Below, one piece after another: positions 14,866-25,875 of a DNA stretch of 64,000 bases (position 1 is its first letter; each line of letters starts with the position of its first letter). The notes under the pieces are model-generated. The model ran no database searches. It worked only from the letters and a program-made list of their open reading frames with translations, and had not been told where the DNA came from. A program made the translations under genes and the position numbers. Source of the DNA: a phage; sequence record PV467749.1; one strand, written 5' to 3'.

Positions 14866-14884
14866 TAGTACTGGTAATATATTT

Positions 14885-15179: not shown

Positions 15180-15193
15180 ACTATTTTTTTATA

Positions 15194-15535
15194 TTATTCG
15201 AAATCTTCTGGACCGGACTGATAATCATCTTCACCGCATGCACTTTCTAACGTTTCACCAGTGTAGTCATCAGTTAGTGAGTCATCCTCATAGTTCACGT
15301 CTACGCCAGTGATGTAAAACTGGCTATCGTCTGGATCATTGAAATTAATTTTTTGGATGTTTACAATAACTGTATTGATACCCAGGACACCGCCATCAGC
15401 CGTTACAAAGTACTGATATTTTTCACAACCGCCTGAATTGAAACCGTAATTAATTTCGGCCCGACCATCATTTAAACGCAGTGCCTGGGCGATGATTTCA
15501 TTTTCAAAGTTAGATTGAGCAATTGAGATAGTCAT
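15194..15535 (-). CDS. hypothetical acidic protein
   Basis: 113-aa ORF, very D/E-rich C-terminus. Confidence 0.75.
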   Translation of the reverse strand: MTISIAQSNFENEIIAQALRLNDGRAEINYGFNSGGCEKYQYFVTADGGVLGINTVIVNIQKINFNDPDDSQFYITGVDVNYEDDSLTDDYTGETLESACGEDDYQSGPEDFE

Positions 15536-15586
15536 GATTTGTTTCCTTATTACCAGGGGAAACCGTTTCCCCTTTCGATGTAAAAC

Positions 15587-15614
15587 ATTATACGCTTATC
15601 AGGAAGTAATGCAA
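15587..15614 (-). promoter_or_regulatory. promoter + 5' stem-loop cassette (PeSL-like)
   Basis: TTGCAT-N16-TATAAT + GGGGAAACGGTTTCCCC hairpin. Confidence 0.7.
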
Positions 15615-15617
15615 GTA

Positions 15618-16085
15618 CTATTTCACGTTAATTTCAAAGTACTGCTCTTTGATGTTTTCCTGTTGGTAAATCTCGTTTAATGCTTTAAGATCTAAAACCT
15701 GTTTACCTGCTGCCTGAATATACTTTTTAAGAGTCGCTAACAGCTTCTCAGGCGTGTTTGTAGTCTTACGTGTTGGGATCTTATCGTGCCCCATAGCGTA
15801 ATACTGCTTACGTGCTATAGTACTGATAACACTGCGGTACGGTTCCATGATCAGCTTGTCTGTGTATTCGTCGCTATCCCCAAACTTCATACCGTGGATC
15901 GCAAAGGTCATCATCATGCGGTCGTTATCGCGGATATTGTGGGGGCAGTCGGCAAGCTCGCGAGTCAGTGACATAGTGATCCCCACGTCGCCACCCAGCG
16001 GTAAAGGTCGGGCGATAAAGAAACCGTTAGGGAATACTTTCAGGAAGTTTTCTTGAACTGCTGCGACGAATTCGATGCTATTCAT
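15618..16085 (-). CDS. hypothetical protein
   Basis: 155-aa ORF, SD AAGGAA. Confidence 0.8.
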   Translation of the reverse strand: MNSIEFVAAVQENFLKVFPNGFFIARPLPLGGDVGITMSLTRELADCPHNIRDNDRMMMTFAIHGMKFGDSDEYTDKLIMEPYRSVISTIARKQYYAMGHDKIPTRKTTNTPEKLLATLKKYIQAAGKQVLDLKALNEIYQQENIKEQYFEINVK

Positions 16086-16137
16086 AATTCATTTCCTTAA
16101 TTAGTGGGGGAAACCGTTTCCCCTTTCGATGTAAAAC

Positions 16138-16165
16138 ATTATACGCCTATTGAGATAGTTTGCAA
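16138..16165 (-). promoter_or_regulatory. promoter + 5' stem-loop cassette (PeSL-like)
   Basis: TTGCAA-N16-TATAAT + GGGGAAACGGTTTCCCC hairpin (same stem as the cassette at 15587). Confidence 0.7.
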
Positions 16166-16259
16166 GTACTTTTTAAAAATAGTTTTCAGTACTCAATACT
16201 TATATAATAGATACACTTCCGCACCCTGTGGGCTAGTGAGCTATCTCTCAATGAATATA

Positions 16260-16298
16260 TAATAGCAAAATGGCTGACCGAAGTCAACCACTTTTTTC
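16260..16298 (-). promoter_or_regulatory. terminator-promoter fusion cassette
   Basis: Hairpin TGGTTGAC-TTCG-GTCAGCCA (16272-16291) carries TTGACT; N17; TATTAT. Confidence 0.6.
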
Positions 16299-16300
16299 AT

Positions 16301-16435
16301 TTATTTTTTAGCTTTAAGTACTGCGGCCTTTCGCGTCATGCCTTGCTTGATGTACTCCTTTACTTTCGCTTTTTTAGCGTTTACCTTGTCTGCTTTCGTT
16401 TTAGGAGTACTGTAAATTATACCGTTAGGATTCAT
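16301..16435 (-). CDS. hypothetical small basic protein (44 aa, below cutoff)
   Basis: My translation: MNPNGIIYSTPKTKADKVNAKKAKVKEYIKQGMTRKAAVLKAKK; its start abuts the stop of the 29-aa ORF. Confidence 0.45.
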   Translation of the reverse strand: MNPNGIIYSTPKTKADKVNAKKAKVKEYIKQGMTRKAAVLKAKK

Positions 16436-16525
16436 TTAAATCACCATAAAGAATAGATAGGTTACTAACAATGCCGCGATCAATGCACCGACCAGGGCCG
16501 AACTATAGTAAGCTAATGATTTCAT
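16436..16525 (-). CDS. hypothetical 29-aa hydrophobic peptide
   Basis: My translation: MKSLAYYSSALVGALIAALLVTYLFFMVI (single TM-like helix); ATGA-coupled to 16522..16674. Confidence 0.4.
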   Translation of the reverse strand: MKSLAYYSSALVGALIAALLVTYLFFMVI

Positions 16526-16674
16526 TTTTTAGCCTGAAAATAATGTTTAATTTGAGCGGCGGTCAGTGCACAATTACGCAGGAAGTTTTCTGTATAACTT
16601 TTGCGAGTACTGAAAGAGAATTGACCTTTGCCGTTACCGATAGTAACATCAAACCGAGCGTTGTATTGTTTCAT
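16522..16674 (-). CDS. hypothetical small protein
   Basis: Start moved to MKQYNARFDV (50 aa); upstream track residues are cassette read-through. Confidence 0.55.
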   Translation of the reverse strand: MKQYNARFDVTIGNGKGQFSFSTRKSYTENFLRNCALTAAQIKHYFQAKK

Positions 16675-16724
16675 TTTGATTCTCCTGTTATTGGGGAGAA
16701 TCATTTCTCCCCTCTATGTAAAAC

Positions 16725-16752
16725 ATTATACGCGTTTAAAAACTAATTACAA
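16725..16752 (-). promoter_or_regulatory. promoter + 5' stem-loop cassette (PeSL-like)
   Basis: TTGTAA-N16-TATAAT + GGGGAGAAATGATTCTCCCC hairpin. Confidence 0.65.
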
Positions 16753-16755
16753 GTA

Positions 16756-16902
16756 CTATTTTTTAGATTTACGCAAACTTTCTACCATCTCAGGAGTAAG
16801 GCCCGGCGGGTAGGAAACTACTTCATCAACGAAACGTAATGGGAATACCCCATCTAAGGTTGAACGTGCTTTCTTGTTAGTACTCTTTTTTGATGCTTTC
16901 AT
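16756..16902 (-). CDS. hypothetical small basic protein (48 aa, below cutoff)
   Basis: My translation: MKASKKSTNKKARSTLDGVFPLRFVDEVVSYPPGLTPEMVESLRKSKK; SD AAGGAA 7 nt upstream. Confidence 0.5.
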   Translation of the reverse strand: MKASKKSTNKKARSTLDGVFPLRFVDEVVSYPPGLTPEMVESLRKSKK

Positions 16903-16953
16903 TTCATATTCCTTAATTAGTGGGGAGAATCATTTCTCCCCTTCATGTAAAAC

Positions 16954-16981
16954 ATTATACGCGTTTAAAAACTAATTACAA
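16954..16981 (-). promoter_or_regulatory. promoter + 5' stem-loop cassette (PeSL-like)
   Basis: TTGTAA-N16-TATAAT + GGGGAGAAATGATTCTCCCC; duplicate of the cassette at 16725. Confidence 0.65.
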
Positions 16982-17181
16982 GTACTATTTGAAAGTAAAT
17001 GCTCATACGCTGCATTAACTACGTTTTCAATAACCGACTGTACAGAAAGATCCCCCACGTCCTGGCTATAGTAGAAATTGCTTACAGTGGTGTCATCGTA
17101 TGCAAATACTTTACCAGGTACGGCATCAATCACATACATATTAACCTTTAAGATGTCGATCTTATCCTGTACAGTAAGCAT
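16972..17181 (-). CDS. hypothetical protein
   Basis: 69-aa ORF following 17187..17459. Confidence 0.65.
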   Translation of the reverse strand: MLTVQDKIDILKVNMYVIDAVPGKVFAYDDTTVSNFYYSQDVGDLSVQSVIENVVNAAYEHLLSNSTCN

Positions 17182-17186
17182 ATTAA

Positions 17187-17459
17187 TTACCCTTTTAAGT
17201 ACTGGATTAAGTAGTCTTGTTGATCTTCGGTGATTGCCGCCATCTTCCCTAGTACTGGATTAATGATATAATCCCCGGTAACGTCCTGTAACGCATTCTC
17301 AGGCGGTGAAACGGCTGGGGTAGCCATAGCCATCGCCTGGACTTGTTCGACGCTGTATCGCTCATATAGGCGGCATTCTTCCGGTGTTAACATAGCATCA
17401 GTACGCTTCATCGGTTTAATGATGCTTTCGATCTCATTCAGTACTTGATTAACGTTCAT
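17187..17459 (-). CDS. hypothetical protein
   Basis: 90-aa ORF. Confidence 0.7.
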   Translation of the reverse strand: MNVNQVLNEIESIIKPMKRTDAMLTPEECRLYERYSVEQVQAMAMATPAVSPPENALQDVTGDYIINPVLGKMAAITEDQQDYLIQYLKG

Positions 17460-17510
17460 GGTATAATCCCCAATATAAGCGGCCTGAATCGACCGCTAAC
17501 GATGTTTTGA

Positions 17511-17780
17511 TTAATAGGTGTATGGTTGACGCTCAAACAATGATTGCACGTTGTACGCCCCGCTTATGGGCTTCGCTGGTAAATCAATTTTATATTGTTC
17601 ACGCTTAAAGATAATAAAACGGCAATTGTTTTTAACATCAAAATTGATTGAACGTTCCAGGAGTTTTCCATCGTGCACAAATACAAGATAACCGCTTGCT
17701 ACTTGTTTTGTAGTACTGGTTGCAACCATAGACCGCCGAACATGTGTACCTGCGTCGATTAAAGTACTGATATTTTTCAT
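17511..17780 (-). CDS. hypothetical protein
   Basis: 89-aa ORF, SD AAGAGGA. Confidence 0.7.
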   Translation of the reverse strand: MKNISTLIDAGTHVRRSMVATSTTKQVASGYLVFVHDGKLLERSINFDVKNNCRFIIFKREQYKIDLPAKPISGAYNVQSLFERQPYTY

Positions 17781-17860
17781 TATACGATCCTCTTAAGTTA
17801 ATTTAATTTCTTTCCCCTATGCAGACACTATATCAAAGTATCTGCATAAAGTAAAGCTAA

Positions 17861-18184
17861 TTAAAGATCTTTTTTGCGTTTAACATTCTGTACAGTACAA
17901 TGCAACGGGATATTAAGATCATTGCACAAACGAGTAAGGGAGGTTTCATCAGTATTAAGCCCGTCTACTGATTCCTTTAAGAGAGATAACGCCGTTTGTT
18001 GATATGCATCTTCATAGCCATAAGTAAATGATTCAACCGCCAGATCATTCAAACCGTTATCCAGTTCAACGCTTACATGACAAGAATGATAAGTATTGCC
18101 ATATGAATCAGTCCAACGTTTACCGTCAACATTGATTGCACGGATTGCAGCCAGGGAAACGGTGTTAATGATAGTTTTAGCCAT
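17861..18184 (-). CDS. hypothetical protein, paralog of 11350..11673
   Basis: Shared RWTDSYGNTYHSCHVS..FTYGY..VKRKKDL. Confidence 0.8.
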   Translation of the reverse strand: MAKTIINTVSLAAIRAINVDGKRWTDSYGNTYHSCHVSVELDNGLNDLAVESFTYGYEDAYQQTALSLLKESVDGLNTDETSLTRLCNDLNIPLHCTVQNVKRKKDL

Positions 18185-18225
18185 TTTTGTATTCCTTAAA
18201 TTAATATGTTGTCTTGATAAAATCT

Positions 18226-18254
18226 ATTATGCCAGTACTATCAAACTATGTCAA
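18226..18254 (-). promoter_or_regulatory. sigma70-type promoter
   Basis: TTGACA-N17-CATAAT. Confidence 0.65.
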
Positions 18255-18273
18255 TAGTACTGTGATAATATTT

Positions 18274-18417
18274 TTACTTACTTTTTGCTTTCTTTGCTGC
18301 TTCCACCTGGTCGGCCCATTCTTTACCCCATACTTGTAAATTATAATGGTACTGGCAAAGAGCAACGCCCCGCTTTAAACCAGTAATAGATTTCTGACCA
18401 CATTGACAAGTTTTCAT
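18274..18417 (-). CDS. hypothetical small Cys-containing protein (47 aa, below cutoff)
   Basis: My translation: MKTCQCGQKSITGLKRGVALCQYHYNLQVWGKEWADQVEAAKKAKSK; own cassette. Confidence 0.5.
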   Translation of the reverse strand: MKTCQCGQKSITGLKRGVALCQYHYNLQVWGKEWADQVEAAKKAKSK

Positions 18418-18466
18418 TTTAGTTTCCTTGTAGTGGGGAGAACCATTTCTCCCCTTGATGTAATGT

Positions 18467-18494
18467 ATTATACTTTATTCGATTTACTTTGCAA
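18467..18494 (-). promoter_or_regulatory. promoter + 5' stem-loop cassette (PeSL-like)
   Basis: TTGCAA-N16-TATAAT + GGGGAGAAATGGTTCTCCCC hairpin. Confidence 0.7.
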
Positions 18495-18502
18495 GTACTT
18501 TT

Positions 18503-18730
18503 TTAATTTAATTCATCAAGGCAAAGGATACGCTCAACGCCCAAATCAGTTAAACTAATCGACGGCACTTGATAGGTTTCAATGTATGCTACACTTGCCC
18601 ACTGACCGAACTCATTAACGGCCCAGGTATTCATTGCATTTTGCAATTCCGCACCTTCCTTGTTGGTAATGACTGCAACTACTTGTTCGTTGCCAGTAGT
18701 ACCAGATACGCGAGTAATGATAATAGCCAT
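18503..18730 (-). CDS. hypothetical protein
   Basis: Start moved to MAIIITRV (75 aa); upstream track residues are cassette read-through. Confidence 0.65.
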   Translation of the reverse strand: MAIIITRVSGTTGNEQVVAVITNKEGAELQNAMNTWAVNEFGQWASVAYIETYQVPSISLTDLGVERILCLDELN

Positions 18731-18785
18731 TGTTTTGATTCCTTTGATTTTGAAGGAGAACCGTTTCCCCCTCTCGATGTAAAAC

Positions 18786-18813
18786 ATTATACGCTAATCT
18801 CTTAATCGTGCAA
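18786..18813 (-). promoter_or_regulatory. promoter + 5' stem-loop cassette (PeSL-like)
   Basis: TTGCAC-N16-TATAAT + GGGGGAAACGGTTCTCC hairpin. Confidence 0.65.
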
Positions 18814-18965
18814 GTACTTTTTATTACTTTTTGCAAAATACTTTAAACGCTCTCAATCGCGTTCTTACAGCCTTAACGCCACCAGCTAGGGCAATGCATC
18901 AGATAATCAGTTTAATGCGTTAGAATCGTTTCTAGGCGGTGCTGGTGGCCTGGTAAACGATAAAC

Positions 18966-18994
18966 ACAAAAAAGCCCACCGTTTAAGGTGGGCT
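18966..18994 (-). terminator. rho-independent terminator
   Basis: GCCCACCttaaacGGTGGGC + TTTTTT on the minus strand, after 19016..19498. Confidence 0.75.
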
Positions 18995-19015
18995 AGTGAT
19001 TCAGTACTTTAATTG

Positions 19016-19498
19016 TTATGCTTCAACTTTGCGATGAGCTTCGATCCATTCCTCGCGAGTCATACCACTGGAGTTAATCGCGTCCAGTACTACCGCAATA
19101 CAGTTACCACGCACCGGAATCAGATATTCTTCCCCGTTGTCCAGTACTACCGCTACGCGTTCCTGAATCCATTTTTTGGCTTTTACTTCTGGCTTGTCTT
19201 CCCCATACTTAACCGCCAGGGCTTTTTGTGCCATCTCTGTAACTACTTCCAGATCCAATCCAACTACTGCCGCCTGAATACTTTCGATTGTTGCTTGTAG
19301 TTCTGCTTCACGGGCCGCCTTTGCCGCTTCAATTTCTGCCGCTTTATTTGCTTGTAGTTCTTTCGCAGTACTGTACGCGATGTTAAAATTATTGCGTACC
19401 GCTTTCATGGTATCGTTATCCAGTTCAGCCAGGATCTCAGCCGCTACGTTAGTTTCATTTGCTACCAGTGCTTTGATGAATGATTTTACATTAGCCAT
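19016..19498 (-). CDS. hypothetical protein (Ala/Glu-rich helical N-terminal half)
   Basis: Start set at MANVKSF (SD GAGGAT); 160 aa. Confidence 0.8.
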   Translation of the reverse strand: MANVKSFIKALVANETNVAAEILAELDNDTMKAVRNNFNIAYSTAKELQANKAAEIEAAKAAREAELQATIESIQAAVVGLDLEVVTEMAQKALAVKYGEDKPEVKAKKWIQERVAVVLDNGEEYLIPVRGNCIAVVLDAINSSGMTREEWIEAHRKVEA

Positions 19499-19621
19499 TT
19501 TATAAATCCTCAATTAAAGTTTAGTTTACGTTTATTAGTGTATCAAAGTTTTCTCGACGTGTCCAGTTTTTCGTTCGACTTACTGGCGGTCTACTTAGTG
19601 CTCCCCGTCTTGATGTAATAC

Positions 19622-19649
19622 ATTCTACGCTTTTCTGCGGTAATGTCAA
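19622..19649 (-). promoter_or_regulatory. sigma70-type promoter with diverged copy of the structured leader
   Basis: TTGACA-N16-TAGAAT. The leader at about 19540-19620 resembles the spacer of the 12321/22107 repeats. Confidence 0.55.
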
Positions 19650-19700
19650 CTACTTTCTTAAAACTATTTTCAAAGTATCTCAGTACTACGATACTACAAA

Positions 19701-19725
19701 AACAAAAAAGCCCACCAGGTGGGCT
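19701..19725 (-). terminator. rho-independent terminator
   Basis: GCCCACctgGTGGGC + TTTTTTGTTTTT on the minus strand, after 19732..19962. Confidence 0.65.
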
Positions 19726-19731
19726 ATGTAC

Positions 19732-19962
19732 TTAATCAGTGAGTAAAATATTAAACACTTTACCATTTAACGTTATTGGTGCACTGCTACCAGGCTCAAG
19801 ATCCGTTAATATACCTGCAATCGCTTTATCATTGGCGACCTTTCCAGTGTCCAACAGTACTACAGTACTGATAAGATTAACGCTCGTTTCAATATCATAA
19901 TGCACGGCGTTAAGTAGTTGTGTAGTACTGCTTTCGTTAAGTAAAACAATTCGCTTAGTCAT
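19732..19962 (-). CDS. hypothetical protein
   Basis: 76-aa ORF. Confidence 0.7.
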   Translation of the reverse strand: MTKRIVLLNESSTTQLLNAVHYDIETSVNLISTVVLLDTGKVANDKAIAGILTDLEPGSSAPITLNGKVFNILLTD

Positions 19963-19983
19963 GATGTTACCCCGTAGTATCTA

Positions 19984-20283
19984 TCAACGGCAATTAATAA
20001 CGCCGGTATGCGTTACTTTCTCAGTATCCATTACAGTGACCGAACCGCGTTTAGTACTGGCATCATAATAAATTGTTGTGCTACCGTTTTCGTCTTCTTC
20101 ATGGAACGGGCCGTTTTTAAATGCTTCCGGCTGGATCTCTAAATCCTTTAATACAATCTCGCCAGTACTTTCATCGGTCATTGCAACAGTGCACTGAATG
20201 AATTTTTCACTACTTACATCTAATGACGCATTAACAGCGAAAGAGGAAACAGATAAAGCCAGGGCGATGATTGTAATTTTCAT
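19984..20283 (-). CDS. small secreted protein (signal peptide, two-Cys family)
   Basis: Start moved to MKITIIALALSVSSFAVNA|S; Cys near the mature N-terminus (FIQC) and 1 residue from the C-terminus (VINCR). Confidence 0.75.
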   Translation of the reverse strand: MKITIIALALSVSSFAVNASLDVSSEKFIQCTVAMTDESTGEIVLKDLEIQPEAFKNGPFHEEDENGSTTIYYDASTKRGSVTVMDTEKVTHTGVINCR

Positions 20284-20328
20284 TTGATTATCCTTAGTTA
20301 CCAGGGGAACCGCTCCCCTATGCAAAAC

Positions 20329-20356
20329 ATTATACGCGTTTAAAAACTAATTGCAA
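20329..20356 (-). promoter_or_regulatory. promoter + 5' stem-loop cassette (PeSL-like)
   Basis: TTGCAA-N16-TATAAT + GGGGAGCGGTTCCCC hairpin. Confidence 0.7.
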
Positions 20357-20389
20357 GTATTTTAATAAAAAGTATTTGAAAAATAATTG

Positions 20390-20418
20390 TTGACAACTGC
20401 ATCCAGTACTGGCATAAT
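20390..20418 (+). promoter_or_regulatory. plus-strand sigma70-type promoter with no ORF downstream
   Basis: TTGACA-N17-CATAAT; CCCACCGGGTGC box at 20447-20458. Confidence 0.6.
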
Positions 20419-20424
20419 TACTAC

Positions 20425-20519
20425 ATCAAGACGAAACAGTCACTAACCCACCGGGTGCCGAGATCCGTCTATTAAATGATTCAGTACTGAAAAAGTAACG
20501 GGGAGTTATTATCTCCCCG
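20425..20519 (+). ncRNA. candidate ~95-nt small RNA
   Basis: Runs from the promoter at 20390-20418 to the GGGGAGttattatCTCCCC hairpin (20500-20518). No ORF or SD; contains the conserved box. Confidence 0.3.
20488..20519 (-). terminator. terminator hairpin (possibly bidirectional)
   Basis: GGGGAGataataaCTCCCC, followed on the minus strand by gttaCTTTTT; lies after the stop of 20525..20746. Confidence 0.6.
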
Positions 20520-20524
20520 CGTTG

Positions 20525-20746
20525 TTATTTTGTAAGGTATAAACAGAAGTCGCCTTTATTTGCTACGCCGCCAGTGTAACGCGATGAATAGTTAGAAACG
20601 TCCTGGACTTCTGCTATTACCAGGGTATCATCATTCAATTCGTCGCAGAAGCAAACGGCTGGATCTTGTACGCCGATTTTGTCGGCATGTTCCCGCATAG
20701 ATTTAACCAGTGCTTCCAGTTGGGAAAGAGTAGTGATATTAGCCAT
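20525..20746 (-). CDS. hypothetical protein
   Basis: Start moved to MANITTLSQ (73 aa). Confidence 0.7.
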   Translation of the reverse strand: MANITTLSQLEALVKSMREHADKIGVQDPAVCFCDELNDDTLVIAEVQDVSNYSSRYTGGVANKGDFCLYLTK

Positions 20747-20796
20747 TTTATTTTCCTCATTACCAGGGAGAACCATTTCTCCCTTTGATGTAAACC

Positions 20797-20824
20797 ATTA
20801 TACAGTACTGAAAACTAATTGCAA
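20797..20824 (-). promoter_or_regulatory. promoter + 5' stem-loop cassette (PeSL-like)
   Basis: TTGCAA-N16-TATAAT + GGGAGAAATGGTTCTCCC hairpin. Confidence 0.7.
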
Positions 20825-20832
20825 GTACTTTT

Positions 20833-21093
20833 TCAATATTGTTTGTCGTCGTCTTCCTCGATGAATTGACCGACGAAATGATCTACTTTCGCTTTGAGGC
20901 TTTTATAATCTTCTTCTACTTCCTTTAAACGTTCCTGGTAGTATTCCAATGCTTCAAGATACGCCGCCTCAGCAGTTTTTGCACGCATGGCTAAATTCAT
21001 GCCACGCGTTTCATCAAATAGCCAATAACCATCGGTGCACTGGCTAATAGATAATGTCTTGCTTAGTGCTGTATAGCTAATTACTTTACTCAT
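20833..21093 (-). CDS. hypothetical protein (coiled-coil C-terminus)
   Basis: 86-aa ORF. Confidence 0.7.
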   Translation of the reverse strand: MSKVISYTALSKTLSISQCTDGYWLFDETRGMNLAMRAKTAEAAYLEALEYYQERLKEVEEDYKSLKAKVDHFVGQFIEEDDDKQY

Positions 21094-21131
21094 TAGATAA
21101 CCCTCAGTAAAGGCGGGAACTATTACCCGCC

Positions 21132-21161
21132 ATTATCTCAGTACTGAATATTACATTCCAA
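21132..21161 (-). promoter_or_regulatory. probable promoter + stem-loop
   Basis: TTGGAA-N18-GATAAT + GGCGGGtaatagttCCCGCC; overlaps the 3' end of 21151..21390. Confidence 0.45.
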
Positions 21162-21390
21162 CCATTGCAGCACGGATCGCAGTAGTGCTATATTTGAATC
21201 CGTCCGGCGTTGTAGTAGTACCGTTGGCTTTTAATCTGCGGTACATACATTCCGCAGCAATATCTTTAGTTCTACTTTGTGCGATGCAACTTTGTGCAAG
21301 CCGATACAATGACTCACCGTTATTAATCCAAAGGCTTACATTCCAATGAGTTTTGTTTTTGTGTCCGTTGTAAGTTTTAGTACTAGCCAT
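21151..21390 (-). CDS. hypothetical protein, paralog of 23196..23435
   Basis: Start moved to MASTKTYNGHK. Shared GHKNKTHWNVSLWINN.ESLYRLAQ and TPDGFKYSTTAIRAAMVGM. Confidence 0.8.
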   Translation of the reverse strand: MASTKTYNGHKNKTHWNVSLWINNGESLYRLAQSCIAQSRTKDIAAECMYRRLKANGTTTTPDGFKYSTTAIRAAMVGM

Positions 21391-21440
21391 TTTTAAATCC
21401 TCGTTTGAGCGGGGAACCACTCCCCGCCTTGATGTAAAGT

Positions 21441-21468
21441 ATTATACGCTTTTAAACTTAGTTTACAA
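21441..21468 (-). promoter_or_regulatory. promoter + 5' stem-loop cassette (PeSL-like)
   Basis: TTGTAA-N16-TATAAT + GGCGGGGAGTGGTTCCCCGC hairpin. Confidence 0.65.
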
Positions 21469-21480
21469 GTACTTTTTAAA

Positions 21481-22092
21481 TTAATATTCGATTGATTCCA
21501 CTACGCCATCAATAACATTGAATTGATATTCGTTACCCTCAATCAGTGCAGTAATGTTTTCAGTAGTGAATTGATCCTCATATGCATTCTCTAAATCACG
21601 GTACAACTTACGAGATAATTCACGGATCGCATCAGTCAGTAAGTTTTCCAGGTCATCAGCAAGTGCCGCTTGTTTTACAGTTAAATCAGTGTAGCGAGTA
21701 TCAACGCAACCGCTTACCGTGTTTTCGTGTGCGTAGCGAGAGTGTGAACGTTCTACACTCATTGCCAAATCATCTTCATTCAACAAGTGACGGATTGAAC
21801 GATATTTCGTTAACGCCTTAACCTTGCGTAAAAACTTCTCAGCGTCAACGTGGTTAGTACTGATTGATGCACCGTCACCTTGCGACCAAAAACCACTGTA
21901 TTGCAATTCAGCTTCATCTATGCCGTATTCTGGTAGTACTGTTTCTTTATAGTACTCGATAACGCCCTCAGCAAAGAAATTATCCTCACATGAACGCTCA
22001 CGATCCCGAACCAGTTCGATAGCCGCCGTTTTTTGTTCTGCGTTCAGTTCAGAAAAAGCCATAACAAAAGTAGTAGTAGTGATAGTTTTCAT
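21481..22092 (-). CDS. conserved hypothetical protein (YSGFWSQGDGAS motif)
   Basis: 203-aa acidic ORF. The motif is reminiscent of plasmid/phage-borne families, but I cannot assign one. Confidence 0.8.
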   Translation of the reverse strand: MKTITTTTFVMAFSELNAEQKTAAIELVRDRERSCEDNFFAEGVIEYYKETVLPEYGIDEAELQYSGFWSQGDGASISTNHVDAEKFLRKVKALTKYRSIRHLLNEDDLAMSVERSHSRYAHENTVSGCVDTRYTDLTVKQAALADDLENLLTDAIRELSRKLYRDLENAYEDQFTTENITALIEGNEYQFNVIDGVVESIEY

Positions 22093-22106
22093 TTTGTAAC
22101 CCTCAT

Positions 22107-22298
22107 TCAGTAGTTGATGTAAGTATTATACGCTTTTAAAAACATTTGTCAAACTATTTTATCAGGGGAGTTTTTCGTGTGCCTTACTCCTGGGCTACTT
22201 AACGGGAAGTTACTTATTTCGTTCCCCGTCCTGATGTAAAACATTATACGCTTATTGAGATAGTTTGCAAGTACTTTTTAAAAATAGTTTTCAGTACT
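22107..22298 (-). repeat. ~190-bp dual-promoter unit with structured ~75-nt spacer (copy B)
   Basis: Near-identical to 12321..12510. P1 22243-22270 (TTGCAA-N16-TATAAT), P2 22125-22152 (TTGACA-N16-TATAAT). Confidence 0.75.
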
Positions 22299-22316
22299 GA
22301 ATAGTAAAAAAAAGTA

Positions 22317-22345
22317 TTGACAGCATTATCAAGTACTGGCATAAT
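22317..22345 (+). promoter_or_regulatory. plus-strand promoter, convergent with 22461..22489
   Basis: TTGACA-N17-CATAAT; box CCCACCGGGTGC at 22367-22378; no ORF. Confidence 0.6.
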
Positions 22346-22460
22346 ATACCCCATGACAACAGCTAACCCACCGGGTGCACAATTGTAACTATACTAAACT
22401 AATTTTTCTATAGATACACTCCCGCACCCTATGGGCTACGGCTTATCTGCCAATGAATAC

Positions 22461-22489
22461 ATTATGCCAGTACTGACAAAATAAGTCAA
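22461..22489 (-). promoter_or_regulatory. minus-strand promoter, convergent with 22317..22345
   Basis: TTGACT-N17-CATAAT; box (minus sense CCCATAGGGTGC) at 22424-22435. Confidence 0.6.
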
Positions 22490-22522
22490 TACCGGCAATT
22501 GTAAATTTTTCAAAAAATATGA

Positions 22523-22753
22523 TTATACTGCAATCGCGTCCAGGCTGTAATAATAATAAGTGCCGTATTGGTGTACTTTATTACCTTTTATTTCAGTACT
22601 GAATGAATCCGAACGATTTGCATATGATGTTAATTTAAAGTACTTTGATTTGCTGATACGTTGCCATACACCACAGATCCGCTGTAAGTAAGTAGTTTTA
22701 TTCGTGGTCGTATCTTTTACGGTTTTAACTTCAGTCATATACATATTAGTCAT
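22523..22753 (-). CDS. hypothetical protein
   Basis: 76-aa ORF, SD GGAG. Confidence 0.7.
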   Translation of the reverse strand: MTNMYMTEVKTVKDTTTNKTTYLQRICGVWQRISKSKYFKLTSYANRSDSFSTEIKGNKVHQYGTYYYYSLDAIAV

Positions 22754-22805
22754 TTTTATTACTCCAGGTTATAGGCGGGAAGAGTTCCCGCTCTCGATGT
22801 AAAAC

Positions 22806-22833
22806 ATTATACGCCTTTAAACATAGTTTGCAA
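22806..22833 (-). promoter_or_regulatory. promoter + 5' stem-loop cassette (PeSL-like)
   Basis: TTGCAA-N16-TATAAT + GAGCGGGAACTCTTCCCGCC hairpin. Confidence 0.7.
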
Positions 22834-22840
22834 GTACTTT

Positions 22841-23107
22841 TTATTCAAGTACTGCAATCTTTTTAGTACGGTACACGGTCACGCGGTTGCCCTTTCGGTC
22901 GAGCTTTATTTCTACCACTCGACGCGATACACTATCGGGACTTTTTAAGGCCGCTAACCAGTACTGTAATGATCTGGCGGTACTACGCTTTACAATGGCC
23001 CAACGTTTACCACGTTCCGATTGTACGCCCATATCTTTAAACGTTGCCCCGTCCTGGCGTGCGGCGATCCGAGCTTGTTCACGCGTCGCAAAATACTTAA
23101 TATTCAT
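22841..23107 (-). CDS. hypothetical protein, paralog of 10859..11254
   Basis: Start moved to MNIKYFATREQAR; shared FKDMG, KRWA, DRKGNRVTVY. Confidence 0.75.
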   Translation of the reverse strand: MNIKYFATREQARIAARQDGATFKDMGVQSERGKRWAIVKRSTARSLQYWLAALKSPDSVSRRVVEIKLDRKGNRVTVYRTKKIAVLE

Positions 23108-23195
23108 GCTGTTGCCCTTATCGTTGGTGTATGAATAAAACACTATTATAAAGTACTATCCCCGTGCAATAGTACTTTAAATAAATTCTATTCTA

Positions 23196-23435
23196 TTACA
23201 TTCCAACCATTGCCGCACGGATCGCAGTAGTGCTATATTTGAATCCGTCCGGTGTTTTATCTTGTCCAGTCTGTTCTAAAAATAACATCATATGACGGGC
23301 CGCATCATTGCGATTAGTGCTATCGTTAATAAAGTCCTGGGCCAACCGGTATAATGATTCATCGTTATTAATCCAAAGGCTTACATTCCAATGAGTTTTG
23401 TTTTTGTGACCTAAGAACATTTTTGATTTAGCCAT
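23196..23435 (-). CDS. hypothetical protein, paralog of 21151..21390
   Basis: Start moved to MAKSKMFLGHK (SD AGAGGA). Confidence 0.8.
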   Translation of the reverse strand: MAKSKMFLGHKNKTHWNVSLWINNDESLYRLAQDFINDSTNRNDAARHMMLFLEQTGQDKTPDGFKYSTTAIRAAMVGM

Positions 23436-23486
23436 TTTTTTAATCCTCTTATATAGTGGGGAACTATTCCCCACCTGATGTAAAAC

Positions 23487-23514
23487 ATTATACGCTTTTA
23501 AACTTAGTTTGCAA
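23487..23514 (-). promoter_or_regulatory. promoter + 5' stem-loop cassette (PeSL-like)
   Basis: TTGCAA-N16-TATAAT + GGTGGGGAATAGTTCCCCAC hairpin. Confidence 0.7.
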
Positions 23515-23528
23515 GTACTTTATTAAAC

Positions 23529-23891
23529 TTATTTGTAAATTTTGCCACTTTCTACCCATACCAGGAAACGAGGCATATTATCCCATGCATCTTGCTTTAA
23601 GTTTAAGCCGTGCAATTCCTCAGTTGTTGCCATGCCTGGGACTGGTTTACTATACACCGAGAATTTTTCGCCCATGTACTGATAAACCATCGTCAAATCA
23701 CTGGCGATCATCTTATGGATCATCGCATCAAGCATCACGGTCGCGGCGTATTGTTCACGCTTAAGCGGCAGCATTTTAATCAGTTCGCGGTATGCGTCAA
23801 TGTGAGTTTTAACCGTTGCCGCCGGAAGATCTTTCATCTCGTCGCGGAAGTTAACCAGGTTAGCAATAATTTTGGTGATTTGAGTCGCCAT
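23529..23891 (-). CDS. hypothetical protein
   Basis: Start moved to MATQITKII (120 aa); 47 upstream track residues are cassette read-through. Confidence 0.7.
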   Translation of the reverse strand: MATQITKIIANLVNFRDEMKDLPAATVKTHIDAYRELIKMLPLKREQYAATVMLDAMIHKMIASDLTMVYQYMGEKFSVYSKPVPGMATTEELHGLNLKQDAWDNMPRFLVWVESGKIYK

Positions 23892-23948
23892 CGTTTTAAT
23901 CTCTCTTAAAAGTGAGTTAGGAGCGTTTCCCCCGTCTCGATGTAAAAC

Positions 23949-23976
23949 ATTATACGCCTTTAAACATAGTTTACAA
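23949..23976 (-). promoter_or_regulatory. promoter + 5' stem-loop cassette (PeSL-like)
   Basis: TTGTAA-N16-TATAAT + GACGGGGGAAACGCTCC hairpin; leftmost-pointing promoter at the edge of the ORF-free region. Confidence 0.65.
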
Positions 23977-24199
23977 GTACTTTCTACAAATACTTTTAAA
24001 ATAGTTTTCTTTCTATATAGGGAAACTATCATTCAGTACTGAATCAACCAAATCACTACTACACCCCGTAAAACGGCCTCAATCGCATTCTAACGCATTA
24101 TTACACCTAAGCTATACATTTGCACCATTCTAATCATTCCAGTGCGTTACGGGCCGTTTAAACGCGTTAAATTATTTTCAATTATTTTGTTTTTAGGTA

Positions 24200-24227
24200 T
24201 TGACTCAGTACTAAAAAAGCGTATAAT
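24200..24227 (+). promoter_or_regulatory. plus-strand promoter, no ORF
   Basis: TTGACT-N16-TATAAT; box CCCCAGGGGGTGC at 24255-24267; an opposite-sense box at 24313-24325. Confidence 0.6.
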
Positions 24228-24415
24228 TACTACATAGACGCGAGAAAGCGGATACCCCAGGGGGTGCGGAATTGTGCCCAAAATTCAAGATATAAAAAAA
24301 GGATACACTCCCGCACCCTAGCAGGTAAACGCACTTTCTCAGTACTGAAATATAGTACCATAGTCCGGCCCAGGATAGCAAGCAAATTAATTAAAACTTT
24401 TTTGCTTCCAGGGTA

Positions 24416-24443
24416 TTGCTTTATTTTTTCAGTACTGTATAAT
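24416..24443 (+). promoter_or_regulatory. plus-strand promoter, no ORF
   Basis: TTGCTT-N16-TATAAT (TG-extended); box CCCACCGGGTGC at 24472-24483. Confidence 0.55.
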
Positions 24444-24540
24444 AGTTCCATCAAGTCGAGAAAGACTCAAGCCCACCGGGTGCATAGTTACGCCCAAAAT
24501 TCAGTACTGAAAAAATTTTTAAAAATATCCGTCCAGGTCG

Positions 24541-24569
24541 TTGACATTGCCCCCAGTTTATAAGATAAT
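24541..24569 (+). promoter_or_regulatory. plus-strand promoter reading into the TAGCCRTC iterons
   Basis: TTGACA-N17-GATAAT; GCGGGGAaactaTCCCCaCGC hairpin about 40 nt downstream. Confidence 0.6.
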
Positions 24570-24666
24570 GATTCCAGATTCAGAAAAATCTAACACCAGA
24601 TACTGCGGGGAAACTATCCCCACGCGGTAGGGGAACTATTGGAAAAAACAAAATAAAATTTTGATT

Positions 24667-24778
24667 TAGCCGTCTATACTTCCAGACGTGTAACCATCTA
24701 GCCGTTTAGCCGTCCAAACGTCTAGCCATCCAGCCATCCAGAAATCTAGCCGTTTAGCCGTCTAGATGGATAGCCATC
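24667..24778 (+). repeat. iteron cluster, 8 copies of TAGCCGTY / YAGCCATC
   Basis: Copies at 24667, 24699, 24707, 24723, 24731, 24747, 24755, 24771. Flanked by a CTTCCAGAC pair and RCCCAAAATYC repeats. Confidence 0.8.
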
Positions 24779-25180
24779 TTTACTTCCAGACTTCTGGAGG
24801 GCTAGACATATCTACGCCCAAAATCCATCCAGGGTAACTACACCCAAAATCCGTCAGTACTATACCATAGATCTATCTTTTGAAAGGGAGTATTCAGTAC
24901 TGCCATCATAGCCCTCACTATGTTACCCTAGGAGGATGAAGACTATCATGTAGTACTGAATACTGTTAGAGGGAATCCACCAGCTTGTGCTGGTGGCATA
25001 ATGCTTTAGATTAAAATCAGTACTGACACCATTCTGTTAATATCAGTACTGTTATTACGATTTTCATATGAGGTTCAAAAAGATGTACCACCACAGGAGG
25101 AACTATCTTTTCTGTACTGTCTCACGACAGGAGGTAGAGTAAATGAATTGTTCGCAGCAACTCATCTCTCTATGTAGAAC

Positions 25181-25208
25181 ATTATACAGTACTGAATCAT
25201 AATGTCAA
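25181..25208 (-). promoter_or_regulatory. orphan PeSL-type promoter (no gene downstream)
   Basis: TTGACA-N16-TATAAT with a GTTCTACATAGAGAG leader like the early-gene cassettes, but followed only by ORF-free DNA. Confidence 0.55.
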
Positions 25209-25486
25209 TAGCTTTCTTTCATTATTCAGTACTGATATTCTTGAGAACTACCCGACTACAAACATCATTATATCCCACAAATCATAAACGTCCCAACGTA
25301 AATTTCAACTTTCGAAGAACCAACTTTTATTTCATAGGTACTCCAAAATTTTTAGGATCGAGATTTAGGATGGAGTACTAACCAACTTTTTGCTGGAGCC
25401 TCAAGGGGTAATTGAATTTTACCCCGAAGGGTAAAAGGGTAATTGAAATTAAGGTGAAAGTAATAATTCAGTACTAATCATTGCGT

Positions 25487-25514
25487 GATTACTTTTGATT
25501 ACATTTGATGTAAT
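25487..25514 (+). repeat. three GATTAC-type hexamers phased at 10 bp
   Basis: GATTACttttGATTACatttGATGTAAT. Confidence 0.7.
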
Positions 25515-25726
25515 TTGCAAAATGGAAAAGGAGCTTGGAAACTACAAAGTACGGCAGACTTCCTCTGCCTACTTAGTGACATATCGACACCTTCAGTACT
25601 GAATACTTTTAGGGCAGTACTGAATCCTTCCCTAGCATTCTTGAGTAATCTTGTCTATAATAATCAGTACTGAATCATATATAATCATTCTGTGATTCTA
25701 CGGTGCTCATATAAATGTTTATATAT

Positions 25727-25752
25727 GATTACTTATGACTACATATGATTAC
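25727..25752 (+). repeat. three GATTAC-type hexamers phased at 10 bp (second cluster)
   Basis: GATTACttatGACTACatatGATTAC. Confidence 0.7.
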
Positions 25753-25875
25753 GGGGTTTAGCCTGGGGAGAATCCTAGTGATCGCATTTGTCCAGGCTGA
25801 ATTTTAACAATTCTTCTAATTGTTAAAGCCTGTCCAATGCTTTCCCTGCGGAGCTTCCCCTGTCTATATGTTGAA

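Follow-up and report, generated by a model that had tools for sequence, protein, structure and literature searches.

The long gene-free stretch of this phage genome is best explained, with a probability of roughly 0.7, as a non-coding control region that occupies the promoter-proximal border of a direct terminal repeat (DTR) of about 20.5 kb; by analogy, it most likely plays a role similar to that of Repeat Region 3 of phage T5. Non-coding elements make up, like a mosaic, the 1.5 kb lying within the repeat, and several of them are conserved across genera. The window analysed here, i.e., the 64,000 nucleotides taken from record PV467749.1, belongs to an Asteriusvirus jumbo coliphage of the PBECO4/121Q/G17 type and is matched by 42 phage records at 88-98%.

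The gene-free region and the end of the packaged chromosome

An earlier note, made from the sequence alone, had described positions 24,033-25,875 as devoid of any credible ORF. This description is borne out, as the ORFs overlapping the region (25-99 aa) are frame noise only, a conserved ORF is likewise absent, and G17 has no annotated gene in the matching gap. Short genes do not fill the region either: four short ORFs carry a Shine-Dalgarno motif, and each of them is lost or broken in at least one of the four Asteriusvirus relatives used for comparison. The window's two longest gaps (750 and 494 bp) both lie here, the other gaps being of at most 430 bp in a crude gene map. Rfam gave no match over the whole window at the gathering score and, at a permissive threshold, only chance-level matches in 23900-26000 (E of at least 0.03). 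A tRNA scan found none, and the neighbouring genes fall, by Pfam and PHROGs, into families of unknown function only, with no clue as to DNA binding. The region is, on the other hand, filled with repeats (27 direct-repeat families and 93 inverted pairs in 2.1 kb), and the promoters and repeats listed in the earlier note are found where it had placed them (Table 1).

Table 1. Features of the gene-free region and of the terminal repeat (window coordinates)
Feature	Position	Strand	Remark
DTR, one copy, about 20.5 kb (20,471 bp)	5103..25573		From G17 DTR mapping
Inverted partner CT|TAGCGAC, left DTR border	5096..5104	-	Motif search
ORF-free region	24033..25875		1,541 bp within DTR and 302 bp of unique DNA
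P1, TTGACT-16-TATAAT	24200..24227	+	Motif; sigma-70
P1 unit, structured RNA/long imperfect palindrome	24234..24359	+	5' hairpin with GAGAAA loop; long stem GGGTGCGG...CCGCACCC
P2, TTGCTT-16-TATAAT	24416..24443	+	Motif; TG extension (extended -10)
P2 unit, truncated P1-unit paralogue	24450..24572	+	GTC-GAGAAA-GAC hairpin, CCCACCGGGTGC box, GCCCAAAATTCA box; 27 bits, E 4e-5
P3, TTGACA-17-GATAAT	24541..24569	+	Motif
Leader box ACGCGGTAGGGGAACTATTGGAAAA	24622..24646	+	Between P3 and array; cross-genus comparison
19 tandem 8-bp boxes	24668..24819		Period-8 array; column-majority consensus AGACGTCT = MetJ metbox
Two RCCCAAAATYC boxes	24816..24852	+	Directly 3' of array; motif search
Inverted Chi pair, hairpin CCACCAGC-ttgt-GCTGGTGG	24977..24996		577-596 bp from right terminus
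14-bp-stem hairpin, two CAGTACTG motifs, then T-run	25018..25051	-	Terminator-like; z -5.2 (minus-strand 24960-25060)
Orphan early-type promoter, perfect TTGACA-16-TATAAT	25181..25208	-	CAGTACTG in spacer; points inward from terminus
Near-terminal conserved block AGGTACTCCAAAATTTTTAGGATCGAGATTTAGGATGGAGTACT	25336..25379		Candidate packaging (terminase) recognition site
Three 10-bp-phased TGATTAC repeats	25486..25519	+	54-87 bp inside terminus
Terminal hairpin GGCAGA-cttcc-TCTGCC, extendable	25548..25573		Ends at last DTR base = right end of virion DNA
Junction motif CT|TAGTGAC, right DTR border	25572..25580	+	Cut after 25573
Unique-side flank	25594..25752	+	Three CAGTACTGAAT repeats and second 10-bp-phased GATTAC/GACTAC set; repeat search

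The region straddles the right border of the DTR. In G17, the DTR is 20,668 bp long (1..20668 equals 350150..370817, with 0 mismatches); its position 1 corresponds to window 5103 and its last base to window 25573. The DTR contains some 50 small early genes, all of them on the minus strand and all provided with a promoter of the sigma-70 type and a 5' leader hairpin. Nine GenBank records with the repeat stop exactly at the base equivalent to 25573, some of them being possibly trimmed to fit an earlier record. Among the relatives, the termini of fEgEco12 were determined by PhageTerm and restriction digests and those of G17 from read coverage, and the repeats of the Klebsiella phages fENko-Kae01 and Muenster are PhageTerm-mapped according to their annotation. 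The repeat of fENko-Kae01, a distant relative, begins in a similar 1.6-kb gap, and that of Muenster with a 1.3-kb gene-free leader. By comparison with these records, the right physical end of the packaged chromosome is placed at 25573, within the region. A genome terminus was one of the options offered in the earlier note, and it proves to be right; its regulatory hub was a fair suggestion as well.

CTTAGYGAC is matched only twice in the window, at the two DTR borders and in inverted orientation, and an outward-reading T|TAG(C/T) junction is found at six out of six borders in three genera, Muenster and fENko-Kae01 included. The terminus of fENko-Kae01 also opens with a hairpin, which has a perfect 8-bp stem. 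The near-terminal block is 91-93% identical in fENko-Kae01 and XbC2 and partially conserved in pEa_SNUABM_12, lies 85-240 bp from the terminus in these three phages, and is the best-conserved bin within Asteriusvirus (0.96). The two GATTAC triplets noticed earlier are both present and phased by 10 bp. Identity among Asteriusviruses is of 80-96% inside the repeat and falls to 40-69% at the junction, the unique-side flank being the most variable part of the region. Packaging recognition sites are probably located here.

Comparison with related genomes, a check that the earlier note had proposed, reveals that non-coding blocks are conserved across genera: blocks of 25-65 nt are 91-93% identical among phages of E. 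coli, Klebsiella, Erwinia and Xanthomonas, the genomes of which share about 29% identity, and the same architecture is observed in every genus examined.

A proposed role and its relation to T5 and T7 ends

Chi sites are enriched about 100-fold in the repeat, and nine of its 11 sites are oriented against RecBCD entering from the left end, which points to the left end as the one that stays exposed longest. The inverted Chi pair of the region, whose plus-strand site is oriented against RecBCD entering from the right terminus, is also present in fENko-Kae01, 484-503 bp from the terminus. Like known Chi/RecBCD hotspots, it offers the exact octamer GCTGGTGG in the right orientation for the nearby DNA end but, unlike them, it is an inverted pair able to form a hairpin, which is called a terminator in the G17 annotation. 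We infer that Chi plays a role in end protection or in recombination between the repeats.

A scenario integrating these elements can be proposed. During packaging, terminase or an associated nickase would recognise the outward-facing TAGYGAC motifs, probably helped in this by the phased GATTAC repeats and by the conserved block close to the terminus. The concatemer would hold one copy of the repeat, which the enzyme would nick at either border, on opposite strands; strand-displacement synthesis would then yield the second copy, in the manner suggested for ends of the T7 type. Once the phage has infected a cell, RecBCD would be blunted, and recombination of one repeat with the other favoured, by the Chi pair located 0.6 kb from the right end and by the nine co-oriented Chi sites facing the other end. 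Host RNA polymerase would start at P1-P3 and produce a structured non-coding RNA, and the 19-box metbox-like array would be bound by a ribbon-helix-helix protein, most likely host MetJ (see below). Finally, by analogy with T5 only, the whole region would mark the inner end of the host-takeover DNA that enters first and would govern the hand-over to the rest of the genome.

The analogy is with Repeat Region 3 of T5 (9194-10409; the T5 repeat ends at 10139), the injection-stop region, which is untranslated, located mostly in the left repeat, and dense in repeats and palindromes. Our region most likely does the same job. Both are untranslated, exceed 1 kb and close a long DTR on its inner side, and both run on into unique DNA, for 270 bp in T5 and 302 bp here. 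In both cases, small early genes driven by host promoters point toward the terminus (dmp, A1 and A2 among the T5 pre-early genes), and T5-like phages of Vibrio and Aeromonas carry the same 8-bp array in this region. In sequence, however, the region does not resemble T5 itself; it lacks the paired DnaA boxes found in the T5 inverted repeats, and the repeat is twice as long, in a jumbo myovirus. Structured-RNA promoters, a Chi pair and a metbox-like array are, moreover, present here in addition. A1/A2 homologues were sought with a piece of AhSzq-1, a T5-like phage, which includes the A2 gene and a portion of A1; tblastn of its ORFs against the window and 120 kb of G17 gave no match at E <0.01.

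Long terminal repeats have already been reported for this clade of jumbo phages, and the clade literature that we searched is silent both on the sequence of the repeat border and on this non-coding region. The elements described here provide testable cis elements for three processes: the cutting of a 370-kb chromosome with regeneration of a 20-kb repeat (inverted CT|TAGYGAC and near-terminal block), the survival of the ends against RecBCD (the dense, oriented Chi sites of the repeat), and the first minutes of infection. They also connect the clade with the injection-stop region of T5, through a common layout and, in the case of the 8-bp array, through sequence as well. To our knowledge, the mechanism of the T5 injection stop has remained open since the 1960s-80s.

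The left end of T7, which is the leading end in T7-like phages, comprises about 0.9 kb of non-coding DNA and three tandem host promoters; Dunn and Studier reportedly described there, in 1983, a terminal repeat, the SRL/SRR short-repeat arrays and the tandem host promoters A1-A3. Our region shares with it non-coding DNA beside a direct terminal repeat, short-repeat arrays and three close, strong host-polymerase promoters. It could thus be imagined that terminus 25573 is a leading end of the T7 type, which would enter first: the 1.5 kb of non-coding DNA would be ejected by the machinery, the promoter at 25208 and about 30 co-directional early promoters would help to pull in the rest, and the array and Chi pair would protect the end or pause its entry. 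Entry from the right end would indeed run in the same direction as all the early genes and as the genes on the minus strand outside the repeat, a correctly oriented Chi lies 0.58 kb away, and an 8-bp array of this kind is found in the T7-like phage PGT2, where it lies 38-117 nt from the left end. We nevertheless consider this reading rather unlikely. P1-P3, which are the strongest conserved promoters here, face outward to the nearby right terminus rather than into the genome, and are followed by structured RNA rather than by genes; the repeat measures 20 kb rather than 160 bp; the large majority of the repeat Chi sites face the left end (see above); and T5, with the same gene topology, enters by its far end.

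The 8-bp array and its likeness to MetJ operators

The TAGCCRTC iteron cluster of the earlier note does exist, with five copies in the region, and is part of the longer period-8 array. The boxes match the metbox at 5.74 out of eight positions on average, to be compared with 5.5-6.0 in the E. coli metJ/metB and metF operators. Over the window, the 10-box mean is 2.00 (sd 0.38), with a maximum of 3.70 outside the array. The array resembles MetJ operators in its strict 8-bp tandem periodicity, its CTAG junctions and its consensus, and differs from them by its 19 boxes instead of 2-5, by a C at position 3 in half of the boxes, and by its setting, as it overlaps no promoter, has no met gene nearby and is carried by a phage genome. 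It is on the basis of these matches that a ribbon-helix-helix protein, and most likely host MetJ, is proposed to bind it, which provides a specific candidate protein for the array. Two observations count against this assignment: about 92 nt separate the P3 start site from the array downstream of it, whereas met operators overlie the promoter, and it is also carried by the Xanthomonas phage XbC2, although Xanthomonadales are without MetJ. No phage-encoded MetJ homologue was found, nor did we find any literature on MetJ or met boxes in bacteriophages.

The array is absent from the Klebsiella phages fENko-Kae01 and Muenster and is therefore not essential to the clade. It recurs, however, near record or genome ends in three unrelated groups of repeat-bearing phages. 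The T7-like phages PGT2, phiKT and KPV811 have the same kind of array near their record ends. In AhSzq-1, it lies in the non-coding pre-early gap, about 2.8 kb from the A2/A1 genes, and in the T5-like phage Pontus, which like AhSzq-1 belongs to the Demerecviridae, it adjoins T5-type GATTTGCAC repeats, DnaA boxes and a LexA-box palindrome. A tblastn search for an array-binding protein shared with AhSzq-1, using all ORFs of a 7.7-kb piece against the window and 120 kb of G17, gave no match.

One possibility, which we put forward tentatively and with low confidence, is that MetJ-type 8-bp arrays are a shared, previously unrecognised cis element of the non-coding end regions of T7-like PGT2/phiKT, of T5-like phages of Vibrio, Aeromonas and Providencia, and of Rak2-like jumbo phages, where they would recruit SAM-sensing host MetJ and build a long, cooperative nucleoprotein block on the DNA that enters first. 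Other members have sites of the Fur, LexA or DnaA type in similar non-coding DNA near their ends, and there it could be Fur, LexA or DnaA that is recruited. If this were true, the block could provide the physical explanation, long looked for, of the injection stop and hand-over in stepwise DNA entry or, alternatively, could be a metabolic checkpoint or a decoy at the start of infection.

The array could also be viewed outside of any function of the border, the position of which would then be incidental: the region would combine a small-RNA locus with a MetJ sponge, de-repressing the synthesis of methionine and S-adenosylmethionine. A conserved structured RNA with its own promoter is present, the array equals real MetJ operators in per-box quality while being 4-5 times longer, and it is located in DNA present twice per genome. 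We find this improbable, since the array recurs near the ends of three unrelated phage groups and the terminus, the junction motif and the near-terminal block are all gathered in the same ORF-free stretch.

Promoters, structured RNA and recurrent motifs

TTGACW-N15-18-TATAAT occurs 17 times in the window, for 0.45 expected. Four promoters had been listed in the region (24200, 24416 and 24541 on the plus strand, 25181 on the minus strand) and described as followed by no gene. All four are in place and no protein gene follows; the description has to be amended in that P1 and P2 lead into members of a conserved promoter-leader/structured-RNA family, and P3 into the conserved leader box and the 8-bp array. 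The -10 hexamer and start region of P1 are 91-100% conserved in Klebsiella, Erwinia and Xanthomonas phages, and a promoter similar to P3 is found at the same relative place in fENko-Kae01 and pEa_SNUABM_12. The orphan minus-strand promoter has a counterpart in Muenster, 299 bp from the terminus.

The P1 unit is predicted to fold stably (MFE -39.3 kcal/mol, z -4.8), scores 118.8 bits to covariance model R1, and has homologues in all Rak2-like loci searched, with compensatory changes in its stems across genera. Both strands of the element are matched by the model, the minus strand giving the more stable fold (-53 kcal/mol), so that it may act through its plus strand, through its minus strand or at the DNA level. 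A second palindrome of the family is located at 22328-22475, and half-units are scattered through the repeat. As for the shorter motifs, 23 of the 25 bases of the leader box are identical in the Erwinia phage pEa_SNUABM_12, and a close variant exists in XbC2. The four RCCCAAAATYC repeats previously noticed (24276 in the P1 unit, 24492 in the P2 unit, 24816 and 24842) prove to be the only ones of the window, and CAGGGTAACTACACCCAAAATC is conserved in fENko-Kae01. CCCAYNGGGTGC has a single exact copy in the region (24472) and a one-mismatch copy at 24256, out of 10 in the window, all in the terminal repeat; GGGTAATTGAA and ACCAACTTTT are each present twice in the region.

Promoters firing into gene-free DNA had led the earlier note to favour a transcription-activated origin of replication like ori(uvsY) and ori(34) of T4. 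Spelled out for this region, transcription from P1-P3, or convergent transcription into the palindrome at 24217-24364, would generate an R-loop or an extruded hairpin priming DNA synthesis. The three strong promoters without a downstream protein gene are consistent with this idea, as are the conservation, in several genera, of a long palindrome flanked by promoters on both sides and the window minimum of the cumulative GC skew at about 25.8-26.2 kb. The idea is nevertheless not supported by the other data, and it seems to us improbable. The only AT-rich 30-mer (24166) is upstream of P1 and no unwinding element lies downstream of any promoter, the transcribed DNA being, unlike that of the T4 origins, G+C-rich and strongly structured (very stable hairpins of -39 to -53 kcal/mol). 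Neither DnaA boxes (TTWTNCACA, or TTATCCACA with at most one mismatch) nor a GATC cluster are found in 23900-26000. The skew does change sign near 26 kb, but it mostly follows gene orientation. The second palindrome and the scattered half-units suit a promoter-leader family better than a unique origin, and the T5 origins are located mid-genome and not in the equivalent region. LexA and Fur boxes are likewise absent from the region, which contains one IHF-like match.

That the region is a functionless spacer, made of decayed genes and promoter debris between two gene blocks, is very improbable: AGTACT, CCCAYNGGGTGC units and early-type promoters are indeed motifs common throughout the repeat, and neither a leader hairpin nor a gene follows the orphan promoter as they usually do, but the cross-genus identity of the 25-65 nt blocks, the covariation of the stems and the constancy of the architecture all argue against it.

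AGTACT had been pointed out as a signal of the region, with 12 sites at 24856-25675. The 12 sites are real, and five further ones are present at 24035-24503, but the motif is not specific to the region, as it occurs 274 times in the window, for 21.5 expected, and is denser in the other non-coding DNA of the repeat (12.3 per kb) than here (about 9 per kb). It was rejected as a regional signal, being of genome scale. Pairs of AGTACT were also rejected as LexA boxes, their spacings not fitting when positions were inspected, and no literature was found on this motif in jumbo phages. The flood of AGTACT and the conserved RNA/palindrome are further clade-wide signals. The flanks of the AGTACT sites have nearly no consensus besides a C at -1 and a G at +6.

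Terminal repeat and physical end of the genome

The 1,843 bases of window 24033-25875 match 42 phage records at 88-98% identity in a database sequence search, all of them jumbo coliphages or Salmonella phages of the PBECO4/121Q/G17 group (genus Asteriusvirus, genomes of ~350 kb). As the earlier note had proposed, the region is free of ORFs: those overlapping it are only short frame noise, the equivalent gap of the relative G17 has no annotated gene, and, of four short ORFs with a Shine-Dalgarno motif, not one is preserved intact across the four Asteriusvirus relatives compared. Searching the window with Rfam at the gathering threshold and with a tRNA scan gave no match. The four promoters noticed here are recovered, three of them agreeing with the consensus at 11-12 of 12 positions (TTGACW-N15-18-TATAAT occurs 17 times in the window, for 0.45 expected), as are the TAGCCRTC cluster, the GGGTAATTGAA and ACCAACTTTT pairs, the phased GATTAC triplets and four RCCCAAAATYC boxes, which have no other copy in the window. 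The feature was real and correctly delimited, but its interpretation was mostly a misreading: this is where the terminal repeat of an Asteriusvirus has its border and leader.

Two copies of the region are present in several related records, which exceed the others in length by 20-36 kb. G17 begins and ends with the same 20,668 bases, and mapping places its first base at window 5103 and its last base at window 25573. Nine records that contain the repeat (G17, fEgEco12, BF17, ELP-22, CRJP21, E9.1, vB_Ec-M-J, WPEC3 and WPEC5) share one exact end, ...GGCAGACTTCCTCTGCCTACT at window 25573, or begin with it when oppositely oriented. These shared ends rest on experiment, since fEgEco12 has a 20,993-bp direct terminal repeat determined by PhageTerm and confirmed by restriction digests, and G17 a ~20-kb redundancy deduced from read coverage. 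Judged from the G17 mapping, the nine shared ends and the experimental termini of these relatives, window 5103-25573 is therefore a single 20,471-bp copy of the direct terminal repeat (DTR). Of the ORF-free region, 1,541 bp are within the DTR and 302 bp beyond it, and conservation of the region in Asteriusvirus is 80-96% in the interior and 40-69% around and beyond the junction.

The comparison with related genomes that had been suggested indicates that a gene-free leader is a clade-wide architecture. The PhageTerm-mapped repeat of the Klebsiella phage fENko-Kae01, which shares ~29% genome identity with fEgEco12, begins in a gap of 1.6 kb that separates the first early gene from a large outward one; the PhageTerm-predicted repeat of Muenster, another Klebsiella phage, opens with a 1.3-kb leader without genes, and the records of pEa_SNUABM_12 (Erwinia) and XbC2 (Xanthomonas) have no genes in their initial 1.7-1.8 kb. 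The existence of the terminal repeat is already known, and the published papers on the clade that we searched contain no discussion of its non-coding border. The junction motif, near-terminal block, Chi pair, conserved RNA/palindrome and metbox-like array described below are, to our knowledge, new. Beyond the position of the terminus, we infer all functions.

Conserved elements of the border region

Read outward from the repeat, with a slash at the border, the junctions are ACT/TAGTGAC (right) and CCT/TAGCGAC (left) in the window, ACT/TAGTGGC and GCT/TAGCACT in Muenster, and ATA/TAGCGGA and CCT/TAGCCAC in fENko-Kae01. In the 64 kb, CTTAGYGAC has just two copies, one per DTR border and on opposite strands, with TAGTGAC at 25574-25580 on the right and GTCGCTA at 5096-5102 on the left. 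On the T7 model, regeneration of the terminal repeat by nicking and strand displacement would need an inverted pair of sites, such as that found at the DTR borders. Both the window and fENko-Kae01 have a hairpin immediately at their terminus, and the conserved near-terminal block (see the table) is always 85-240 bp from the genome end; together with the phased GATTAC repeats, this block is a candidate packaging recognition site. The left DTR border (window 5103-5254) falls in a 249-bp intergenic gap. About 45 bp inside this end lies a GATTGGACTATG block, common to fENko-Kae01 and loosely to Muenster, which may be the recognition site for the left end.

Coordinates of features of the terminal repeat in the window
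Feature	Position	Strand or direction	Remarks
Promoters P1, P2, P3	24200-24227, 24416-24443, 24541-24569	plus	
Metbox-like array	24668-24819		19 tandem 8-bp boxes (iterons of the earlier note); frame AGNCNTCT
Inverted Chi pair	24977-24996		CCACCAGC-ttgt-GCTGGTGG
Orphan promoter	25208-25181	minus, points inward	perfect early-type match
Near-terminal block	25336-25379		44 bp; 91-93% identical in fENko-Kae01 and XbC2, partial in pEa_SNUABM_12
Second complete P1-family palindrome	22328-22475		between convergent TTGACA/CATAAT promoters
Chi sites in the repeat	6464, 6687, 8266, 10168, 13413, 14363, 14621, 18879, 18941, 24977, 24989		

The repeat contains 11 Chi octamers for ~0.2 expected (about 100-fold enriched), and the other 43 kb of the window only 3. 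Nine of the 11 are minus-strand sites, in the orientation that acts against RecBCD coming in at the left terminus; the plus-strand Chi of the inverted pair faces the right end. In fENko-Kae01, this pair recurs at about the same distance from the terminus, and co-oriented Chi enrichment is observed there too.

The claim that no gene follows the promoters holds for protein genes, but P1 and P2 are followed by a predicted structured RNA, and P3 by a conserved leader box kept in Erwinia and Xanthomonas phages. The 65 nt from the P1 -10 onward are 91% identical in XbC2, shorter parts being 91-92% identical in fENko-Kae01 and pEa_SNUABM_12, and homologous units are found in CBB, GAP32, a Yersinia phage and uncultured 371-kb genomes. 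The fold common to 10 aligned sequences combines a long stem with a 5' hairpin whose loop is GAGAAA, and has compensatory changes in 9 of its 21 base pairs; the 5' stem varies between CGC/GCG, CCA/TGG and CGA/TCG in this alignment, from which the P2 unit of the window (GTC/GAC) was left out. In the window, the P1 element folds at -39.3 kcal/mol (z -4.8), and a covariance model scores it at 75-127 bits in every Rak2-like locus searched. The element is also a long imperfect palindrome, at 24217-24364; the model scores the minus strand too, which folds better (-53 kcal/mol). The CCCAYNGGGTGC box marks full or half P1-family units; its 10 copies are all inside the repeat, including those in other 300-430-bp intergenic gaps (6518, 9270, 12540, 14526, 16221, 20447, 22367 and 22424). 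The second complete palindrome of the family again folds better on the minus strand (-74.8 kcal/mol, z -10.7) than on the plus strand (-48.3). Candidate roles for the P1 element are RNase III-type processing or stability, function as a small RNA, and action as a site at the DNA level.

In fENko-Kae01 and pEa_SNUABM_12, the loop of the P1-type element holds an insert, …AATGATAATCATTCGCATT…, which resembles palindromes E-I and direct repeat C of T5 Repeat Region 3, as well as a palindrome just after the array of the T5-like Aeromonas phage AhSzq-1.

The orphan promoter lacks the leader hairpin and gene that come after each of the ~30 remaining early promoters in the repeat. The latter are on the minus strand of window 6000-24000 (for example at 23976, 23514, 22833, 21468, 16981 and 8905) and consist of TTGCAA or TTGACA, N16-17 and TATAAT; each is followed by a near-invariant start GTTTTACATC, a 5' GGGGA-N-TCCCC hairpin and a small gene with its Shine-Dalgarno motif. 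Host-polymerase units of one or two genes each make up the entire repeat as a battery.

The metbox-like array and the likeness to T5

MetJ operators are characterized by tandem boxes with a period of 8 bp. The 19 boxes of the array match the MetJ metbox AGACGTCT at a mean of 5.74 of 8 positions, and their column-majority consensus is exactly AGACGTCT; by the same measure, the genuine E. coli metJ/metB and metF operators reach 5.5-6.0, and ten consecutive boxes elsewhere in the window score at most 3.7 (mean 2.0, sd 0.38). Similar arrays occur in Rak2-like phages of Erwinia, Serratia, Yersinia, Cronobacter and Xanthomonas, in T5-like phages of Aeromonas, Vibrio and Providencia, and in the T7-like phages PGT2, phiKT and KPV811, either close to the ends of records or genomes or within pre-early non-coding DNA. 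MetJ is limited to Enterobacterales, Vibrionales, Aeromonadales, Pasteurellales and Alteromonadales, to which the Xanthomonas phage is an exception. The leaders of fENko-Kae01 and Muenster (1.5-1.7 kb) lack the array, that of fENko-Kae01 having in its place, at the same distance from the terminus, a Fur-box look-alike. We found no phage-encoded MetJ homologue, and a tblastn comparison of the ORFs in a 7.7-kb piece of AhSzq-1 with the window and 120 kb of G17 gave, as an alternative binder, no protein common to the jumbo phage and AhSzq-1. On the basis of its sequence, we hypothesize that the array is a giant MetJ operator, with predicted binding by MetJ.

In the T5-like Vibrio phage Pontus, a 17-box array adjoins GATTTGCAC repeats, two DnaA boxes and one perfect LexA box. 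GATTTGCAC is the reverse complement of T5 direct repeat D, and these surroundings correspond to Repeat Region 3 of T5. The AhSzq-1 array is found in a non-coding gap of 950 bp, and the DNA-transfer genes A2 and A1 are ~2.8 kb away from it.

The untranslated region of T5 (9194-10856) includes Repeat Region 3 (9194-10409), which is mostly within the 10,139-bp left terminal repeat and overruns it by 270 bp into unique DNA. The pre-early genes dmp, A1 and A2 of T5 point toward the left terminus and the ~50 early genes here are likewise terminus-directed, so that, in both its untranslated border region and its gene direction, the layout is the same as in T5. The array, via the T5-like Vibrio and Aeromonas phages, is the bridge to the T5 region at the sequence level; T5-type paired DnaA boxes are absent from the region, which has no sequence homology to T5 itself. 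By analogy, the region would work like T5 Repeat Region 3, and we do not file it as a member.

Other predicted sites were observed in these regions. In the T5 injection-stop region (AY587007 9330-9633), the known DnaA boxes are accompanied by a LexA box that is perfect (palindrome D, TACTGTATAAATATACAGT) and by sequences resembling Fur boxes (15-16 of 19 matches); in Pontus, the LexA and two DnaA boxes beside the array are at 700-800. The Fur-like boxes of fENko-Kae01, at 775-799 and 2342, have 16-17 of 19 matches. In AhSzq-1, one DnaA box is ~100 bp past the array and a further five are in the non-coding gap next to it; this phage also has a Fur-like box with 16 of 19 matches. In these phages, the non-coding parts of the terminal repeat (pre-early regions in T5-like phages) look like collections of predicted host-protein binding sites.

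Alternative readings and AGTACT sites

One alternative is a T7-like entry led by the right end, with the region reaching the cell before any other DNA. Gene direction, the Chi copy facing the right end and the PGT2 array, at 38-117 nt from the left end of that phage, are consistent with it, but the direction of P1-P3 is wrong for it and the opposite end is the one guarded by most Chi sites, which makes it doubtful. That the region could be a pure decoy or small-RNA locus is a little less probable still, as this would leave unexplained why terminus, junction motif and near-terminal block are co-located in one stretch. The replication origin, which was the leading idea of the earlier note, is unlikely, slightly more so than the decoy: the defining unwinding element is absent, and the GC-skew evidence is ambiguous. 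Finally, a functionless spacer is contradicted by the cross-genus conservation of the blocks and is highly improbable.

The AGTACT sites previously noticed in the region are present, but are not specific to it, as other non-coding DNA of the surrounding block is equally dense in them (12.3 per kb, versus ~9 per kb in the region). With 274 copies in the window for 21.5 expected, AGTACT is the second most over-represented hexamer, after the overlapping CAGTAC. Being the top hexamer, at 15-26 times expected, in fENko-Kae01, Muenster and the Erwinia and Xanthomonas relatives, it is a clade-wide signal; our literature searches on it found nothing. Its contexts are often CAGTACTG or TCAGTACTGA, with almost no flanking consensus, and many early promoters have it inside their spacer (...CAGTACTGTATAAT). 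Found in coding as well as non-coding DNA, it is missing from window 1-5102, has a sharp onset at ~5230, and occurs at ~6.5 per kb in the repeat and the paralogue array up to ~30 kb and at 2-4 per kb beyond. In window 26000-30000, where ~65-aa paralogous genes (PHROG 11711) are on the minus strand, G+C falls to 30-35% and the plus-strand GC skew is +0.15 to +0.33, a G excess opposite to that of every other minus-strand block in the window.
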